Of a stretch of 64,000 nt of DNA, positions 7,596 through 64,000 are shown piece by piece. Under the pieces are notes generated by a model that worked only from the letters and a program-made list of their open reading frames with translations, ran no database searches and was not told the origin of the DNA. Every line of letters begins with the position of its first letter. Position 1 is the stretch's first letter. Both the position numbers and the translations under genes were made by a program. Source of the DNA: Escherichia phage vB_EcoM-Sa45lw; the sequence record MK977694.1. One strand, 5' to 3'.

Positions 7596-8292
<697 letters not shown>

Positions 8293-8293
<1 letters not shown>

Positions 8294-9018
8294 TATAGTA
8301 CCTTTAGTGTATTTTTAATTTTAGAAAAAAGTTCTTCAAGAGAACCATCGTTTGTAATTACTAAATCACCATCACGAATTGGCAATCCAGCTTCTGTAAT
8401 ATGTGTATCATTGGATTTTTGACCAGGACGAACTACATGAATTACTGTAGCACCCATCGCCCTAGCCGCATCCATTTCATGATCTTGACGAGTATCAGGA
8501 ACGATATAATAATCATAACCTGAGTTAAATTTATCAAGATAATCTAAAGCAAATAATTTTACCCAGTACATGCGGTCGAAGTTATTAACAATCAAATCCG
8601 TACCTAGGGCTTGCATCAGACGACGGACTGACCATTGATCTTCAATATTATTTATAACGTCAATAATCTTGTTAAATGCTACGGAATTAACTGATTCTTC
8701 TCCTTCGTCATCAAAAACAAACACACCTTTAATTGGGCTTTTACCATTAAGATAGCAAAATGCTTGTTCCATAATCGCGATTACTTCTGATTTAGTCAGA
8801 TTTAAATTAGTCTCACGATCATAGTCAATTCCTTCAAACTCTTTACGAGTTAAGCAAGGATAGTCAGTGTTTGCTGCAAATACTCCCCATGCATAAGCCA
8901 ATGCATCCTTAATAGGACCAGCAAGTTGGTATTTAACTGCAGAATAATTGCTCATGATAAAATCAGCAGTAGTATCTTTTCCACTACGCTTTACACCGCT
9001 TAAAAAGATTAGTTTCAT
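8293..9018 (-). CDS. 1: deoxynucleoside monophosphate kinase (gp1), 241 aa
   Basis: ATG at 9018-9016 (MKLIFLSGVKRSGKDT, P-loop) with GAGGAG RBS; 241 aa as in T4 gp1; the track ORF extends 13 codons further upstream. Confidence 0.85.
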
Positions 9019-55483: not shown

Positions 55484-57541
55484 CTACATTTTGAACTTTT
55501 TAGACATTCCGTTAATGTTAACCAAAGAAGCTAAGATTTGAGAAACTTCGTTTTCCTCTTCTTTTGATTCTTCTACAAGGAATTGATTAAATCCAGCCAT
55601 TGGACGAACTTCACCAGTTTCCATTAGATGGTCGCCATCATATACTGATTCTTCTAATTGTTCAGAAGGAGGAACGATTGTACCTTCGATTAGATACTTG
55701 TTATAAGCAGTTTCTTTCATAAAGTAAGTACTTACTTTATTAATCTTCAGTAAAATTCCACGTGGTAGAATAACTTCAGCTTCTGATGGAAATCCTGATA
55801 AATGACCCGGAACGATAACTTTAACTCGTTCAGCTCCTTTAATTACCATACCCACGCTAGTTTCAGCATCTTCATTAGCATATGTAGAATGACTACCCAT
55901 ATGCATCAAATCTTCTGCATCAACGGAACCTTCTCCTTCACCAGAAAATACTGCTCCGGAATCATCTAAGGCCATATAATTTTTACCATACTCACCAAAG
56001 ATATTTGGTTTAAGTGATGTAGATACGAAGTTCTTGAAATAGAACATTTTATTTTCAATGTTATGACGCAAAGTTTTAAAAGTAACTTCTTGTCCACGGT
56101 AAAGTGTAGTTCCTGGAGGAAGAACTGAACCTTTAGCAAACGCAGAATCCATAGTCTCGATGTGCTTAATAGCGCGCTCCATGTATTCTTCACGTGTAGA
56201 ATCAGGTTTACCTAAAAGGAATGAGTTCATTTCAACATACGAATCTGCACAATAATCTTCAATTACATCAGATTCAGCCTGAGTCAATCCTTTTGGAGTT
56301 ACTTCAGTGCTTGCATATTCATACGCCTGAGCAGCGGATTCATCAATTAATTTATAAATGCCATTCATGACAAATTGAATAATAGCTGTCTTTTCATCTG
56401 GCGTAGCTTTAGAACCTTTAACTAAATCATTGACAATTTTCTTAATAACATCAAAGCTATTAGAAATATTAATGTCAGCAAGATCGCTTAAAATTTTATC
56501 AGTTTTATAATCAAAGAATTCTTTATTCTTTAAATATTCTTGAGAACCTTGATATGTTATATCGCTCTGCAGCTTGATAGATGGATCACGTAAACGTGCA
56601 TGGGCTAATGCAATATGATTTCGGAAGCTTTCTAGTTCATAATCACTAGATTTAAAACGAGAAGCACTCCTCATACCACCGATAGCTCCTTTGCCGAAGT
56701 TTGAACCAATCTGAATAACGCCAGAGTTCATTGGTCCTTCTGCTTTATATACCGGAACTTTAGATTCAAACTCTTGATATTTCTTAGCAGCAAAGCTATC
56801 ACCCTGAAGTGAAGCATCAACAGTAGAATATTGAGCTTGTGCTGCTAATCGACGACTAATTTTAGTTTTCTGAATAACAGCTTGATCCGTACGCTTATCA
56901 TTTTCTAAAGCAATAGAAGCAGCAACTGCGACAGCTTTAGGAACAGCATTACCTGTTTTAACGTCTACATAAACATCACCGACTTTCGATTCAACTTTTG
57001 TGAATAACTCAGTTGAAATAGGAGGTACACCTGGAATGTCTTCTAAATTGGCATTTTTACGGTAAACCATAATATATGCATATTTCTTATCATAGTCCCA
57101 GATTTCCTTTAAAAGAACATATCGACCTGCTCCTTTAGTACGTACTAAACGGTCAGCAATAACTTGCATTTGACGAGCAGCGCCATTTGTTTTACTTTTT
57201 AGTACGCGGAATAGGCATGCATCAATTTTATACTGTTTCATTGTTTGAAGAGCAGTATCAAAAACCGCATTAATGACACCAATTGGATTTCCACCCAAGT
57301 TTTTAAGCTTAACTAACGATAATTTCTCATTAACACCTATCATTACGATATGCATCATTTTGTCGCCTGGCTTAACGTTTTTATTCGTATCACCGCCAGA
57401 GGTGTATGTACAAAATCGAAATCCAGGAAGAACGCTTTCTTCACCGGCTTGAATAGCAAAAATTTGAGGTATTTTATGCTTAGGATTTAAGTTAACAACC
57501 GGCGCCGAAGCGCCGTCAAATAATTCTGTAATAAGTTCCAT
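55484..57541 (-). CDS. Alt-family ADP-ribosyltransferase paralog A (685 aa)
   Basis: N-terminus MELITELFD...NLNPK.KIPQIF shared with the adjacent paralog; C-terminal ART motifs present (LYRGQ, FVSTS, EAEVILPRG); AAGGATAAATC RBS 3 nt after the upstream stop. Confidence 0.8.
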   Translation of the reverse strand: MELITELFDGASAPVVNLNPKHKIPQIFAIQAGEESVLPGFRFCTYTSGGDTNKNVKPGDKMMHIVMIGVNEKLSLVKLKNLGGNPIGVINAVFDTALQTMKQYKIDACLFRVLKSKTNGAARQMQVIADRLVRTKGAGRYVLLKEIWDYDKKYAYIMVYRKNANLEDIPGVPPISTELFTKVESKVGDVYVDVKTGNAVPKAVAVAASIALENDKRTDQAVIQKTKISRRLAAQAQYSTVDASLQGDSFAAKKYQEFESKVPVYKAEGPMNSGVIQIGSNFGKGAIGGMRSASRFKSSDYELESFRNHIALAHARLRDPSIKLQSDITYQGSQEYLKNKEFFDYKTDKILSDLADINISNSFDVIKKIVNDLVKGSKATPDEKTAIIQFVMNGIYKLIDESAAQAYEYASTEVTPKGLTQAESDVIEDYCADSYVEMNSFLLGKPDSTREEYMERAIKHIETMDSAFAKGSVLPPGTTLYRGQEVTFKTLRHNIENKMFYFKNFVSTSLKPNIFGEYGKNYMALDDSGAVFSGEGEGSVDAEDLMHMGSHSTYANEDAETSVGMVIKGAERVKVIVPGHLSGFPSEAEVILPRGILLKINKVSTYFMKETAYNKYLIEGTIVPPSEQLEESVYDGDHLMETGEVRPMAGFNQFLVEESKEEENEVSQILASLVNINGMSKKFKM

Positions 57542-57544
57542 GAT

Positions 57545-59638
57545 TTATCCTTGAACGAACTTGTAAGGCATGTTTGTAATATCTATGCAAGACGCAATAA
57601 TTCCAAGAGATGATTCTACTTTCTGTTTAATATTTGATGAAACAAATGATGCAAAGTCAACTCTGTCTTCTATTTCAATATCACCTGTCATTGCAACCAA
57701 TTCACCAGTTTCCATTAAATGGTCTCCATCATAGATTACCGATTCGGTGAGCTCTTCCGTGGTCATAACTTCAGCTTGAATGAGTTTTGTATTATTAGAT
57801 GTTGTTCCGTCATTATTAGAAGCATCAGTTATTTTATTAACCTTGACCATCAATCCGCGTGGTAGAATAACTTCAGCTTCTGTTGCTATTCCGAGACTTC
57901 CTGGATATACAACATTAACTTTATGAGCTCCATCAATTGCCCATCCTATTTGAACTTTAACATATTCAGGATTTTCTTTATACGCTCTTATTTCGTTTGG
58001 ATTAATAGTTATTCCTTCTTCATTTTTATCAACTGTTAATTCGTTACGAGCTTCTGGTTCTAAAAGACCAATACCAGCATGTGTGATTCCAAAACGTCCA
58101 AAAATGATAGGAGTTAAAGAAGTAGATACAAAATTTCTGAAGTAGAACACTTTATTTTTAACTAACGCTTCATATATAGGAGCAGTCATACTTTGAGCAC
58201 GATAAACTGTAATGCCTTCTGGTATACGGTCACCATTTTCAAAAGCTGAATCTAAGTTATTTATAGCAGATTCAATTTCTTTTTCACTCATTACATCGTA
58301 TCGTTCTGGATTGTAACGACCTAAAAGAAGATTATTGATGTCAGTATATCCTGAACCGCAATATTCTCTAATGCCACGCTTTTGTGATGGAGTATATTTA
58401 GAACCATCGCGGGCAATAGTAATATCAATCATTGGACCAGCACCAATTCCAGAAAAACTGTAAATCATTCGTTTGAGGAATTTAGTTTTTGCTGCGTTCC
58501 AGGAATTTTTAGTTATTTCTTCCCAGACTTCATCTGGTTGTCCTTTACGATTTTTATTATGATTAGCAAGCCATTTATCTTTATAATCTTCAAAGAATTG
58601 ATTTACAGCTGCTGCGTATTTCTCTAAACATTTTATTGAAGTAGTTGGTTCATTTTTAATTGCATTAAAAATTACTTCTTTAATTTTTTCTGAAACTTCA
58701 CCGACTTGACTCATTGGAAAGAATTTATAATCATAGTGAAGTTCATCTGCCGTTCCTTCAGCAATAATTTTTGCTGCCTTTGTTTTAGAAGCTAATGAAT
58801 TAATTCCAATTTTCATTTCTTCTGCTTCGGGAATTAAAGGTGCAGTAGCTGGTTTATTAAAATTAGCTGCTGTAGATTCATACTTCTGGAATAATTCACT
58901 TTCAAATCTAGAAGATTCCAATGACTGACTTTGTGCAATTGCTCTACGGGAAATTTTAACTTTAACGATTACGGCTTGGTCAGAACGTTTATCATTTTCT
59001 TGTGCAATAGATGCAGCAATTGCCTCATTTTTGGTTACTTGAGCTCCAGTATCTTTATTGATATAAACATCACCGACCTTCGATTCAACTTTAGTAAAAA
59101 GCTCGGTGCTAATTTCTGGAACTCCTGGAATGTCTTCTAGTGATACATTTTTACGATGTATAAGAATATATGCATACTTTTTATCGTAATCCCAGAGTTC
59201 CTTAAGAAGGACGTATCTGCCACCTGAACGACTGCGGATGAGTCTATCAGCAATAAGTTGAATTTGTCGAGCTTGACCGGCGGTTTTAGACTTAAGAATA
59301 CGAAGCATGCAGGCATCAATTTTATATTGACGCATTGTTTGCATTGCAACAGTAAAAACTGAATTGATATAATTAATCGGGCTTGGACCAAGACCTTTTA
59401 ATTTAGCAATTGAACCTTTAGCAGTTAATGTAAAAGGAACAATGTGCATCATTTTATCGCCCATCTTTAAATCACGATTAGTATCACCTCCAGATGTATA
59501 GGTACATAAACGAAAGCCTGGTTGTTCAATTGCATCATCAACATGAACTGAAAAAATTTGTGGTATTTTCTTCTTTGGATTTAAGTTTGTAATCGGAAGA
59601 GTAGTATCTTCGTCAAATAATTCTGTAATAAGTTCCAT
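57545..59638 (-). CDS. alt: Alt-family ADP-ribosyltransferase paralog B (697 aa), likely the alt ortholog
   Basis: N-terminus MELITELFDEDTTLPITNL; ART motifs VYRAQ, FVSTS, EAEVILPRG; own late promoter upstream, consistent with a packaged head protein. Confidence 0.8.
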   Translation of the reverse strand: MELITELFDEDTTLPITNLNPKKKIPQIFSVHVDDAIEQPGFRLCTYTSGGDTNRDLKMGDKMMHIVPFTLTAKGSIAKLKGLGPSPINYINSVFTVAMQTMRQYKIDACMLRILKSKTAGQARQIQLIADRLIRSRSGGRYVLLKELWDYDKKYAYILIHRKNVSLEDIPGVPEISTELFTKVESKVGDVYINKDTGAQVTKNEAIAASIAQENDKRSDQAVIVKVKISRRAIAQSQSLESSRFESELFQKYESTAANFNKPATAPLIPEAEEMKIGINSLASKTKAAKIIAEGTADELHYDYKFFPMSQVGEVSEKIKEVIFNAIKNEPTTSIKCLEKYAAAVNQFFEDYKDKWLANHNKNRKGQPDEVWEEITKNSWNAAKTKFLKRMIYSFSGIGAGPMIDITIARDGSKYTPSQKRGIREYCGSGYTDINNLLLGRYNPERYDVMSEKEIESAINNLDSAFENGDRIPEGITVYRAQSMTAPIYEALVKNKVFYFRNFVSTSLTPIIFGRFGITHAGIGLLEPEARNELTVDKNEEGITINPNEIRAYKENPEYVKVQIGWAIDGAHKVNVVYPGSLGIATEAEVILPRGLMVKVNKITDASNNDGTTSNNTKLIQAEVMTTEELTESVIYDGDHLMETGELVAMTGDIEIEDRVDFASFVSSNIKQKVESSLGIIASCIDITNMPYKFVQG

Positions 59639-59880: not shown

Positions 59881-61340
59881 AAACCAGTTACCTCATGAAA
59901 ATCGCCAAATACATCTTCGAACGTATTAGCTTTAGTTTTATCTTCACGTAAACGAATTGCAATTGGAAGAAATAGCTTAACGTAATCAGTACGTCCATCT
60001 AATTTTACCCAGCCGTTGCATTCGCACTCTAGAATTTTTCCAATATAATAATTTTGGTTTTCCATAATGCGAGTACGATCAAGTTCATGCGATTTTATAC
60101 CGGCTTTATCTTTTAAGCCTGAACCAGCATTTACTTTAATTTTTCCACACTCTGATTCAAGAATGAAACCACCTGCTTTAGTAGGGTCTTTACGGTGAGG
60201 ATAAATTCCTACAATTTTTAAATCAACATCAATTACTTCTTTAAATTTATAAAGATTTTTTGAACGAGCATTTTCCCATAATCCATCGATATTTTTGAGA
60301 ATAATACCTTCAAGACCTTGGTCAATATACTTTTTATAAATTACCTTAGCTTCATCTAGGTTATTTACTATCTGGTTTTCAATTAAAATTACTTTATCAT
60401 AGCCTGATGTCATTTGTTCTAGTTTAGAAAAACGTACATCATATTTTAAACGAAATGCTGGAAGACCATATATTTCTACTAATGGAACATAGTCCCAGAC
60501 CTGAAACTTCATGCATTGTGCTTCTTTTTCAGAAATGGTTCCCTTTAAAGATTTATTAGCGATTCCATTAGAAGTAGTACGTGATTCAGCTACTTCGGCG
60601 AATTCTTTAGCTTTACTAATTTCAGGATAAGCATCAAAAAGAAAATCTAGGCCTTCTGGTTCCTTTTCAACTTGCTCATGGTATACCAATTCGCCATCAA
60701 TTAACACACCTTCTGGATGAATCTGGCGAGCTTCTGCAGTCATTTTGATTAACTCTTCCTTGAGAAGATCTAATCCTAGATATTCATTACCAGCTCGTGA
60801 TAAAAGACGAACATCATCTAATTCATCACCTCTGACTTCAGCAAAGCACCGAGCTCCATCAGCTTTTAACTGGGCAAAAGCTGGAAATTTGATATTCTTA
60901 TTAATGCCTTTTTCATCATAAGAACTTGCCAGCATTTGAGGTTGTTCAGGAATTAAACCTGGCCAAACTTTGTTTGCAATAGATACTGATGCACCACATT
61001 CAAGGTCTCGCATCATCACCCGACGCAAAACTTCAACATCATCTTTTTTACCGTCAGCAATATATCCAGTTAATTCCTCAATTGCCGCATTTCCGGTCAA
61101 TTTCCGAGTAGCTAACGTGAATTCAATGAAGTCAAGCATATCGGTAAGAGTCAACATTCCAAAACTCTGGGTAGTAATACCCGGTTTAGGCCATTTCTTG
61201 ATATAATACTGTAACCCACGAGAATAAGTCAGACGATATACTCGTTTAAGCAATTCATTATCTTTATTCTTTTCAAGAATTGCTTGCTTCTGCTTAGTTG
61301 AACCAATAGATGCTATTTCGTTCAGAATTTTAAGAATCAT
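59877..61340 (-). CDS. 30: ATP-dependent DNA ligase gp30 (487 aa)
   Basis: MILKILNEIASIGSTKQKQAILEKNKDNELLKRVYRL...; adenylation motif KADGAR; 487 aa as in T4 DNA ligase. Confidence 0.97.
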   Translation of the reverse strand: MILKILNEIASIGSTKQKQAILEKNKDNELLKRVYRLTYSRGLQYYIKKWPKPGITTQSFGMLTLTDMLDFIEFTLATRKLTGNAAIEELTGYIADGKKDDVEVLRRVMMRDLECGASVSIANKVWPGLIPEQPQMLASSYDEKGINKNIKFPAFAQLKADGARCFAEVRGDELDDVRLLSRAGNEYLGLDLLKEELIKMTAEARQIHPEGVLIDGELVYHEQVEKEPEGLDFLFDAYPEISKAKEFAEVAESRTTSNGIANKSLKGTISEKEAQCMKFQVWDYVPLVEIYGLPAFRLKYDVRFSKLEQMTSGYDKVILIENQIVNNLDEAKVIYKKYIDQGLEGIILKNIDGLWENARSKNLYKFKEVIDVDLKIVGIYPHRKDPTKAGGFILESECGKIKVNAGSGLKDKAGIKSHELDRTRIMENQNYYIGKILECECNGWVKLDGRTDYVKLFLPIAIRLREDKTKANTFEDVFGDFHEVTGL

Positions 61341-61606
61341 TGTTCATCCTTTAGAGTTTGGTTTACAGCTCTATTATAAATCAATTCATCATTAAGCTCA
61401 GTCAAAGACCTGTGATACGTGGTTCTAACTTTATTTCCTTGCATCCAGTGCTTGACGTAAATGAAACCTTGCTCTACACATTTTTTAAAAATTCGTTCGT
61501 CTTTTTGAGCTCGGAATTCTGGATTGCATCTAAAAAATTGATTTACGTGACCGTAATCACGTGTAGTATTACCTTCATTTTCATAAATAGTGTGAACAAC
61601 AAACAT
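61337..61606 (-). CDS. hypothetical protein (89 aa; gene 30.1 position)
   Basis: Small ORF immediately upstream of the ligase with overlapping stop/start. Confidence 0.55.
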   Translation of the reverse strand: MFVVHTIYENEGNTTRDYGHVNQFFRCNPEFRAQKDERIFKKCVEQGFIYVKHWMQGNKVRTTYHRSLTELNDELIYNRAVNQTLKDEQ

Positions 61607-62442
61607 TAGAATGCTCCTTGGAAAATATTATCACCGCTAGTAGGTCTATTATACAAATACTCTATGCCACCAGGTTTAATATAGTTCCATGTCTGAAACG
61701 GATGCGTCTGATATGGATGATATAGATTATAAGGATTAAATCCAGGAGTTCTCCAGGTAGTGTTCCAAGGAAAAGAATCGTTTTTAATCATCTTTTCAAT
61801 TACATCTTTTATAGCTTTTTCACTATCAAAACTTTCTTTATTTTCCTTCGATGGAAAAAGCTTATTCTCTACATCATTCCATGTATAAACTCGCTGTGCA
61901 GTTTTTGGAATACTGTCACGCTCCCCTCGAGCCATCCAATAAACAGGAACATTTAATATTTCACTCGCGTGATCGCAGTGGTGAGCGAGATCGTCAATAT
62001 AACAAATTACGTTATATTTCTCTTTTGCCTTTTTGAACAACTCTTCTTTTGAAGAATCATGACCACACATCAATACTTCTGAGAAGGCACCAGGAAAAAG
62101 AGCATTCAAATTAAATTGACGATTCAGCAGAGCGTCAATAGAATCACCCAATGCTGTAACAGCTACAAAATTATAATCTTCTTTTAATTTGTTAATTACA
62201 CATAGAGCATCTTTATATGGAGACAAATAACGAATAAAATCTGAACGATTATACTTTTCGATTAATTTAACACCAAGTTCTTCATCGCAATTAAAGAGCT
62301 TACCAGGAGAAATAAATTTTTCGTCCTGAATCATTTTTAAAATATGTTCTAATGGAAGATTATATTTTTGGGCAAAATAAGGAAGACCTGATTGCCAGCT
62401 TAAACATACACCATCAATATCAGTCAAAATAGTAGGCTTCAT
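61606..62442 (-). CDS. HAD-superfamily-like hydrolase (278 aa; gene 30.2 position)
   Basis: N-terminal HAD motif I LTDIDGV and later YIDD acidic motif. Confidence 0.55.
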   Translation of the reverse strand: MKPTILTDIDGVCLSWQSGLPYFAQKYNLPLEHILKMIQDEKFISPGKLFNCDEELGVKLIEKYNRSDFIRYLSPYKDALCVINKLKEDYNFVAVTALGDSIDALLNRQFNLNALFPGAFSEVLMCGHDSSKEELFKKAKEKYNVICYIDDLAHHCDHASEILNVPVYWMARGERDSIPKTAQRVYTWNDVENKLFPSKENKESFDSEKAIKDVIEKMIKNDSFPWNTTWRTPGFNPYNLYHPYQTHPFQTWNYIKPGGIEYLYNRPTSGDNIFQGAF

Positions 62443-62903
62443 AGAGAGTCTCTTAATAGGTTTAACACATCAATAAATTCAGCTTCGGTTAGTATTGTAT
62501 CATCTTTTGTTAGACCACTAGCCATGCTGTGCTTCAAAACTTTTCCTTTCGAGGCTTGTAATGCATCACGAAAGCCCTTGTTTTGGATCGCTGCTTCAAA
62601 ATATGCATTTGTGTATAATTCTTTCCACGCCGGGGAGTATCTTGAAAACGGAACTCCAAGCCAGAAGAGGGTCCCACGGTCCTGAGCTCTAGCATAAGAC
62701 CTTCCAGCTTGTTGGGCGGCAAGCCCGGATAACCCAAATATACGACGTTGTTGTTCAACATTTTTCACCTTGCATCCTTGGAGGAATCCTTCAAGACCTC
62801 CAAATTGAATACCATCCATAACGAAAGGCCATTGGGCGAAATTACTTAATGCACATGATGGCCACCTAAAATTGCTTCTAATCTCTAACTCAGACATTTT
62901 CAA
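62439..62903 (-). CDS. NADAR / YbiA-like (DUF1768) domain protein (154 aa)
   Basis: Motif CALSNFAQWPF closely resembles the YbiA/NADAR signature (FSNFAAWPI in E. coli YbiA). Confidence 0.6.
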   Translation of the reverse strand: MKMSELEIRSNFRWPSCALSNFAQWPFVMDGIQFGGLEGFLQGCKVKNVEQQRRIFGLSGLAAQQAGRSYARAQDRGTLFWLGVPFSRYSPAWKELYTNAYFEAAIQNKGFRDALQASKGKVLKHSMASGLTKDDTILTEAEFIDVLNLLRDSL

Positions 62904-63096
62904 TGCTTATAATTTCAACATCAGCCCAATGACCATAGCAAGGAAGACGAAATTCAACTGGCCAGTTAGGGTCCTTTTCTAATATAATAGACTCAACTCG
63001 TGGTTCTTCATGTTCATCAGTATATGGATTTTTATCTGTTACTTTATATGTGACCTTAATGTACTGAATTCCAAAAATCTTATTAATTATATTCAT
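62890..63096 (-). CDS. hypothetical protein (68 aa)
   Basis: Small overlapping ORF in the operon upstream of the ligase. Confidence 0.45.
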   Translation of the reverse strand: MNIINKIFGIQYIKVTYKVTDKNPYTDEHEEPRVESIILEKDPNWPVEFRLPCYGHWADVEIISIENV

Positions 63097-63290
63097 ACTA
63101 ATTCCTTTAATCCGTAAATAGGAGATAATTCATCACCCATGCGAAGGTCTTCATTTCCATCTACCCAAGAAACAATATAAGCCTCTTTTATTTGAATACC
63201 ACTCCATTTAAATGGAGGTAGAACCTTAGAAATTAATCCAGGTATACCAACTCCCTTTAATTCAACAGTTTGACCTAAAAAGAATTTCAT
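63093..63290 (-). CDS. hypothetical protein (65 aa)
   Basis: Small ORF with ATGA-type overlaps to neighbours. Confidence 0.45.
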   Translation of the reverse strand: MKFFLGQTVELKGVGIPGLISKVLPPFKWSGIQIKEAYIVSWVDGNEDLRMGDELSPIYGLKELV

Positions 63291-63577
63291 TAGAACCTCA
63301 TCTGAAAGCCGTGTGATTTAACATTACCGCCGCCAATATCAGAAATATTAATTTCACGCGCAATTGAAGGGTCAATGTCAATTTCACGATTAAGTTTAGC
63401 TATAGCTAAAGTATCACGCCCATTTACTGTACGGAATTCTAAAGGACAAACCACATCAACATAATTTTTAATCGATTCACTGGTAGGTTGCAAATGAGCA
63501 GGAAGGTCTTTAGGCGCCTTAGAGAAAACAACTTCACAGAAATTTTTGCGGGTATCAAAATAAGTAGTCATAAACAT
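63290..63577 (-). CDS. hypothetical protein (95 aa)
   Basis: ATG at 63577-63575 (MFMTTYFD) with GAGGAAAAT RBS; the track ORF extends upstream across the hairpin at 63594-63609. Confidence 0.5.
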   Translation of the reverse strand: MFMTTYFDTRKNFCEVVFSKAPKDLPAHLQPTSESIKNYVDVVCPLEFRTVNGRDTLAIAKLNREIDIDPSIAREINISDIGGGNVKSHGFQMRF

Positions 63578-63593
63578 AGTATTTTCCTCAGTA

Positions 63594-63609
63594 AGGGGCC
63601 GAAGCCCCT
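63594..63609. other. GGGGCCGAAGCCCC hairpin (third copy of this motif)
   Basis: Identical core to hairpins at 1744-1757 and 43074-43091; T-run on the plus side. Confidence 0.4.
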
Positions 63610-63617
63610 GTTTTATT

Positions 63618-63983
63618 TTAAATATCAAATTCGTTAAGAACTACATCAAAGATTGCTTCAAGATGCTCAGGTTTAGCTCTGTTACTCAAAATATGACGAA
63701 TCCAAGTTTTAACCAGAAGCTTACGATTAGCGCCATTCCAGCAAGGATGGGTCCCTAAATCGCGTTGACGAAAATCATCATCCAGAGCGATTTTGAAGTT
63801 TGAACCTTCCATTGTGATTGAAACCGTGATGCCATTTTCAAATCGCATATAAACGTAGTTAGGAGTCATATACTGTTCAATTTCGCATACTGATCCATTT
63901 TGATGTTTCCAAAGGCAAATAGTATCAATAGAACCTGCAATACCATTAGAAACATATTTACGTTCAAAGTTGATGTAGTTCAT
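63618..63983 (-). CDS. hypothetical protein (121 aa)
   Basis: ATG at 63983-63981 with GGAGAATAAAA RBS at the window edge. Confidence 0.5.
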   Translation of the reverse strand: MNYINFERKYVSNGIAGSIDTICLWKHQNGSVCEIEQYMTPNYVYMRFENGITVSITMEGSNFKIALDDDFRQRDLGTHPCWNGANRKLLVKTWIRHILSNRAKPEHLEAIFDVVLNEFDI

Positions 63984-64000
63984 TTTTATTCTCCGAGATG

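Follow-up and report, generated by a model that had tools for sequence, protein, structure and literature searches.

The window analysed here is a stretch of 64,000 nucleotides from Escherichia phage vB_EcoM-Sa45lw (sequence record MK977694.1). The phage is T4-like and belongs to the genus Tequatrovirus: a 2-kb query centred on the gene of interest matches 680 phage records, the best of which is Escherichia phage vB_EcoM_ASO78A with 99.1% identity. The locus is a string of minus-strand genes that follow one another as in T4, alt – alt.1 – 30 (DNA ligase) – 30.1 – 30.2 – 30.3 – 30.4 – 30.5 – 30.6 – 30.7. Gene 30.3, now called adfN, sits between 30.4 and 30.2, upstream of the DNA ligase, which is the position of its T4 counterpart. 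The features of the locus are collected in Table 1.

Table 1. Features of the adfN locus and of its product in the window.
Feature	Coordinates	Strand	Remarks
adfN / gene 30.3, coding sequence	62439..62897	-	152 aa from the ATG at 62897
Overlap of adfN ATG with the end of 30.4, 8 nt (ATGTCTGA)	62890..62897	-	layout as in T4
Codons S18-N19-F20, core of the NADAR N-terminal motif (A16-L-S-N-F20 ... F25)	62838..62846	-	aligns to YbiA FSNFAAWP
Codon E36 (GAA), catalytic glutamate	62790..62792	-	aligns to the Glu of YbiA SEHYFQAQK
Codon K43 (AAG), catalytic/ADP-ribose-contacting lysine	62769..62771	-	aligns to the YbiA Lys
75-aa ORF in the +1 frame inside adfN	62534..62761	-	corresponds to T4 gene 30.3', layout identical
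Codon H123 (CAC), last beta-strand	62529..62531	-	end of model strand E120-122
Codon M125 (ATG), sole amino-acid change from T4 (Ile)	62523..62525	-	protein alignment
C-terminal alpha-helix, residues 138-151, intact	62445..62486	-	high confidence in the model built with alignment A1
Overlap of adfN stop with 30.2 start (ATGA)	62439..62442	-	same overlap in T4
Gene 30.2	61606..62442	-	278 aa, 97% identical to T4 gp30.2, weakly HAD-like
Two full-length Alt-type ADP-ribosyltransferases in tandem	55484..57541 and 57545..59638	-	both match PF03496

The minus-strand ORF 62439..62903 and the string ALSNFAQWPF in its translation, both described in a first-pass annotation of the window, are present. 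This ORF would encode 154 residues if the TTG at 62903 were counted as the start. We rejected this codon in favour of the ATG located two codons (6 nt) downstream: the T4 annotation begins 30.3 there, and the published numbering of residues E36 and K43 fits only the 152-aa form. The start was therefore moved by 6 nt to 62897, and the coding sequence is most likely the one given in Table 1. No clear or canonical Shine-Dalgarno sequence was found upstream of adfN for either the TTG or the ATG. With the ATG overlapping the 3' end of 30.4 in this setting, adfN is likely to be translated by coupling to that gene. A scan of positions 61000-64000 for promoters and terminators gave counts not above those obtained in shuffled sequence.

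The ORF nested inside adfN is described in the T4 record as 'internal translation in a different reading frame'. An ATG-started ORF in the 30.3' frame was not found in four of seven distant homologues (Acj61, KVP40, RSP15 and the metagenomic contig L004). As a conserved gene, 30.3' is thus unsupported beyond close relatives.

Identity with T4 gp30.3

The adfN protein matches the Pfam family PF08010 (Phage_30_3, 'Bacteriophage protein GP30.3') over profile positions 1-138 of 138, with an E-value of 2.3e-70 and a score of 235 bits (cut-off 36); no NCBIfam model was found for it. Aligned with T4 gp30.3 (NP_049816), it is identical at 151 of 152 positions (99.3%), of equal length and free of frameshifts. 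At the DNA level, five differences in 459 nt separate the two alleles, four of them synonymous. The remaining one produces the substitution I125M, two residues after H123. We collected 104 homologues, of which 85 full-length sequences were aligned (alignment A1). Position 125 is occupied by Ile in 39 of these 85 family members and by Met in 38; since the two residues are about equally common at this site, I125M can be regarded as a family-typical neutral variant. Proteins 100% identical to the present one occur in phages teqskov and vB_EcoM_Lutter. Homologues of gp30.3 were found in 1510 phage records from many host genera, nearly all of them annotated as 'hypothetical protein'.

The profile match, the position of the gene, its intact length, the C-terminal helix, E36 and K43 all agree with the gp30.3/AdfN family. 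The product also shares with T4 AdfN the start and stop overlaps and H123, the two proteins differing only by I125M. On sequence grounds, we identify the gene as the orthologue, in this Tequatrovirus phage, of the already known T4 gene 30.3 (adfN, anti-DarT factor NADAR).

NADAR fold and active site

The first-pass annotation considered the protein to be NADAR/YbiA-like and proposed a search with the NADAR/DUF1768 profile, the lack of a hit counting against the idea. A direct scan against the Pfam NADAR family PF08719 indeed gave no match for this sequence at E<=0.1. This absence would be misleading as a refutation, because Pfam keeps the gp30.3 proteins in the separate family PF08010, and membership of the NADAR superfamily holds through the family profile. 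The profile built from alignment A1 matches E. coli YbiA (PDB 2b3w) with an E-value of 0.0065 across the region of the SNFA…E..F.Q..K motif, where LSNFAQWPFVMDG…EGFLQGCK in the family is aligned with FSNFAAWPIKVDG…EHYFQAQK in YbiA. Furthermore, PF08719 is matched directly by 12 of the 85 family members (best E=1.5e-7). The homology to NADAR is therefore transitive and holds only at the level of profiles. When the single protein was compared with PDB sequences by phmmer, nothing meaningful was obtained, the top match being an N-type ATP pyrophosphatase (E=0.61).

Structure prediction by AlphaFold2 gave an unusable model from the single sequence (pLDDT 38) and a confident one when alignment A1 was supplied (pLDDT 93.6, pTM 0.89). 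The predicted model displays the YbiA fold, an alpha-helical core flanked by two small beta-sheets. A Foldseek search of the PDB with this model retrieved YbiA, the NADAR of Phytophthora nicotianae (8bau) and the DarG1-type NADAR of Geobacter lovleyi (8bat), and no other structure above a probability of 0.06. Given the profile matches, the confidence of the model and the retrieval of NADARs alone, the predicted fold is unambiguously that of NADAR. Together with the conserved motif, these results bear out the original assignment, and the structural and active-site comparison that the first-pass annotation had proposed reveals E36, K43, H123 and the C-terminal helix intact within a YbiA fold.

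Eighteen residues are invariant in 85/85 sequences of alignment A1: P13, A16, L17, S18, N19, F20, F25, E36, G37, F38, Q40, Q50, A61, G65, H123, T134, L136 and T137. K43 is kept in 83 of the 85. Both E36 and K43 have been mutated in T4 AdfN (PMC11825919): E36A is impaired in vivo and abolishes the removal of ADP-ribose from DNA in vitro, and K43A also impairs the protein. [quoted passage not shown] The adfN product carries His (H123) at this place, as expected of the phage subfamily. The C-terminus is also of functional importance: loss of the last 15 residues, as in the natural frameshift allele of phage RB69, reduces activity and renders RB69 sensitive to DarTG1 (PMC11825919). The active site and the C-terminus of the present allele are intact.

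Broken 30.3 alleles occur in public T4-like phage genomes and metagenomes (P0004, P0007, P0010, P0013, P0016 and P0017). The reading frame is shifted after about residue 82 in P0013 and after about residue 127 in P0010, whereas in P0016 (phage NR1) the N-terminus of the 30.3' frame is fused to the 30.3 frame. Some other relatives are N-terminally truncated gene calls from which the SNF motif is missing. These broken alleles resemble the RB69 loss-of-function allele, and may either mark DarTG1-sensitive phages or reflect errors in sequencing or gene calling.

The protein differs from the DarG1 antitoxins in several respects. DarG1 (BC4488 subfamily) is paired with DarT1, whereas adfN is an orphan with no DarT gene adjacent. 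The G. lovleyi NADAR has 219 residues against 152 here, and the 132 residues that can be aligned leave out the N-terminal extension of DarG1, which adfN does not have. Finally, the catalytic Asp found in the last strand of the DarG1 type is replaced by His. Other orphan NADARs are known in phages: AdfN(Bas32) and AdfN(Bas60), from T5-like and Vequintavirinae phages, are likewise guanine-specific and directed against DarTG1. However, they belong to other NADAR clades, were independently acquired and neutralise DarT1 without a phage context, unlike the T4 type (PMC11825919).

Published and predicted removal of guanine-linked ADP-ribose

The gp30.3 proteins of phages were placed in the NADAR superfamily by De Souza and Aravind, as that work is cited in PMC11125620 and PMC11543638. 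NADARs were later found to hydrolyse guanine-linked ADP-ribose and to serve as DarT1 antitoxins (Schuller et al. 2023, PMC11543638), and the T4 NADAR was shown to remove G-ADPr, and not T-ADPr, in vitro (Cihlova et al. 2024, PMC11125620). By mapping, Johannesman et al. (Nat Commun 2025, PMC11825919) identified gene 30.3 as the determinant by which T-even phages resist DarTG1, and renamed it adfN. In their work, resistance was demonstrated for the T4 and T2 alleles, deletion of adfN made T4 sensitive to DarTG1, and AdfN supplied ectopically from a plasmid was sufficient by itself to rescue RB69. The purified T4 protein stripped ADP-ribose from DarT1-modified DNA and the E36A mutant did not; no interaction between AdfN and DarT1 was detected by two-hybrid assay, and T4 AdfN had no effect on DarTG2. 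In agreement with the genetic data, the HIDEN-SEQ preprint (10.1101/2025.11.20.689424) reports that T4 mutants with a transposon in 30.3/adfN disappear when the host carries DarTG1. The hydrolysis of G-ADPr was found again in a 2026 paper in which the T4 NADAR is the phage representative of the superfamily (PMC12945103).

We are all but certain that the adfN product is a minimal, 152-residue, single-domain ADP-ribosylglycohydrolase of the NADAR fold that erases guanine-ADP-ribose from phage DNA and so counters DarTG1. In the proposed mechanism, the DarT1 toxin of a DarTG1 host would ADP-ribosylate guanines in the phage DNA and block replication. AdfN would hydrolyse the guanine-N2-ADP-ribose bond by means of E36, K43 and the subfamily-specific H123, and replication would proceed on the cleaned DNA. 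The protein would thus act enzymatically on modified DNA rather than through binding of the toxin and, being specific for guanine, would leave the thymidine adducts of DarT2 uncountered. From the 99.3% identity with T4 AdfN, we infer that this allele behaves like the T4 protein and confers resistance to DarTG1 during infection. The guanine ADP-ribose hydrolase activity suggested by the first-pass annotation thus corresponds to what has been published for a 99.3%-identical protein (PMC11825919, PMC11125620, PMC12945103). Its further proposal of a counter-defence against DarTG-type systems stands for DarTG1, on the deletion and rescue experiments with T4 AdfN, and fails for DarTG2 (PMC11825919).

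T4 AdfN is fully active only in T-even infections, and phages outside this group are only weakly rescued. In uninfected cells it fails to protect E. coli from DarT1 and cannot stand in for the DarG1 antitoxin (PMC11825919, PMC11125620). This inactivity outside of T-even infection points to a T-even-specific requirement of the in vivo mechanism. It also implies that one of the assays initially put forward, growth rescue of cells expressing DarT1, would have read negative.

A broader version of this activity has to be weighed, in which AdfN is a general eraser of guanine-ADP-ribose from both DNA and RNA, protecting against several ADP-ribosyltransferase toxins, DarTG1 being merely the first example. 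All four NADAR families, the T4 enzyme included, are reported to remove G-ADPr from DNA and RNA in vitro (PMC12945103). The authors of PMC11825919 point out that it makes no difference to an eraser working by catalysis which toxin made the modification, and that T-even phages combine several anti-DarT factors. The spread of the gene over 1510 phage records and many host genera is perhaps wider than DarTG1 alone would explain. However, DarTG1 is the sole target demonstrated in vivo, and the summary table of PMC12945103 lists the removal of cytidine-ADPr only for NADAR and YbiA NADAR, not for the T4 enzyme. We consider this broader role possible, though on the unlikely side; it would extend the explanation preferred here, the erasure of DarT1 marks from phage DNA, rather than compete with it.

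Neighbouring genes and alternative readings

The surroundings of the gene had been described in the first-pass annotation as a DNA ligase, a HAD-like hydrolase and two ADP-ribosyltransferases. The ligase, gp30.2 and two Alt-type transferases with PF03496 are confirmed, and the HAD-like label is weakly supported. The Alt-type proteins are the only ADP-ribosyltransferases nearby, 3-7 kb from adfN. This region distinguishes the phage from T4, with a mosaic Alt and an extra full-length Alt paralogue. The Alt orthologue has 697 aa and is 71% identical to T4 Alt overall; its first ~245 and last ~100 residues are nearly identical to T4, whereas the centre, which includes the ADP-ribosyltransferase domain, is far more diverged. 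The paralogue, of 685 aa, is 41% identical to T4 Alt (PF03496, E=7.5e-20), and T4 retains at this position only the remnants alt.-1 and alt.-2.

For gp30.2, no match was found in Pfam or in NCBIfam. Hints of a HAD-like nature come from an N-terminal DIDGV motif and from a match to a PHROG of polynucleotide kinases (E=0.004); the comparison with PDB sequences gave an insignificant match to a 5'(3')-deoxyribonucleotidase (E=1). Homologues were found in 1439 phage records, a few of which are annotated in GenBank as HAD-like hydrolase or 5'(3')-deoxyribonucleotidase. In T4-like phages of other genera, conservation is limited to residues 1 to ~200. The last ~75 residues, in which P, W, Y and N are abundant, can be aligned only among Tequatrovirus-like phages and their close relatives. 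A constant association of gp30.2 with gp30.3 is ruled out by the metagenomic contigs L002, L004 and L007 and by phages KVP40 and RSP15.

A gene for a NUDIX/MutT-family hydrolase is located at a distance of 2.6-3 kb from the gp30.3 homologue in two jumbo-phage-like metagenomic contigs, one of them from a 308-kb contig, and in Acinetobacter phage Acj61 (L004 and L005, both 8115..8879, minus strand; L009, 790..1158, plus strand). NUDIX enzymes are capable of breaking down free ADP-ribose; chance may account for the proximity. In a phage-like metagenomic contig, the gene for a small GGDEF-domain protein of 165 aa (PF00990) precedes the gp30.3 homologue by ~1.7 kb (L002, 2819..3316, plus strand; L003, 1646..2143, plus strand).

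The factor that AdfN would require in T-even infections may be encoded in the same string of overlapping genes. The first candidate would be the weakly HAD-like gp30.2, which is translationally coupled to adfN by the ATGA overlap, is adjacent to it from T4 to Acj61 and has a similar number of records (1439 vs 1510); 30.3 and 30.2 would then form a two-component unit for the de-ADP-ribosylation and clean-up of DNA. We rate this proposal as decidedly unlikely.

An even wider association, already suggested by the first-pass annotation as an ADP-ribosylation-centred module, would unite adfN with the Alt transferases, the ligase and gp30.2, for example for reversing or editing the phage's own ADP-ribosyltransferase marks. 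In favour of this idea, genes 30.4-30.3-30.2-30.1-30 overlap on the same strand, with two Alt paralogues after them, and the order 30.3–30.2–(30.1)–30–alt is kept in a metagenomic T4-like contig (L006, 58% AdfN identity) and in Acinetobacter phage Acj61 (43% AdfN identity). However, the 30.3 gene of Vibrio phage KVP40 adjoins a-gt.4 and genes 47/46, and the homologue in Ralstonia phage RSP15 lies among tRNA genes. The arrangement is also missing from the contigs L002, L004 and L007, where no ADP-ribosyltransferase is found beside the gp30.3 homologue, and in L002 and L004 the genes downstream have no similarity to gp30.2. Moreover, Alt is a virion-packaged protein ADP-ribosyltransferase that acts on the host RNA polymerase (T4 record), a chemistry unlike that of guanine-base adducts, and AdfN expressed from a plasmid needs no partner from this set to rescue RB69 (PMC11825919). 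A functional module is therefore highly improbable. As the gene order dissolves in KVP40, RSP15 and three contigs, and as AdfN alone is sufficient, we take the arrangement to be synteny of the T4 early region particular to this lineage, rather than an obligate functional unit.

Two further readings of the protein itself have next to no likelihood. In one, adfN would be an auxiliary metabolic gene encoding a YbiA-type housekeeping N-glycosidase that detoxifies intermediates of the riboflavin pathway. YbiA-type enzymes are housekeeping proteins tied to riboflavin intermediates and swarming (PMC11825919, PMC11125620). In favour of this reading, E. coli YbiA ranks with the closest hits of both the fold and the profile searches, and the JGI automatic annotation names some homologues 'YbiA (DUF1768 family)'. 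However, YbiA and the P. nicotianae NADAR, both of the PF08719 type, are only 15-21% identical to the adfN protein, the last-strand Glu that defines the YbiA subfamily is here His123, invariant in the whole alignment, the T4 protein clusters closest to DarG1-type NADARs and not to YbiA (PMC11825919), and a defence phenotype has been demonstrated for the T4 gene. In the other, AdfN would block DarT1 by stoichiometric, antitoxin-like binding, as does AdfA(R164H) of RB69, another T-even factor (PMC11825919); for the T4 protein, such binding has been refuted by the negative two-hybrid assay, by the loss of most function in E36A and K43A and by the removal of the mark by the purified enzyme in vitro (PMC11825919).

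The function discussed here, the erasure of guanine-ADP-ribose from phage DNA, was published between 2023 and 2025 for a near-identical T4 protein and is no new discovery. The gene is nevertheless easily missed in automated annotation, because nearly all the records call its product a 'hypothetical protein' and Pfam separates PF08010 from NADAR. By analogy with the RB69 precedent, the presence of an intact or a broken adfN allele should predict whether a T4-like phage can plate on DarTG1 hosts.
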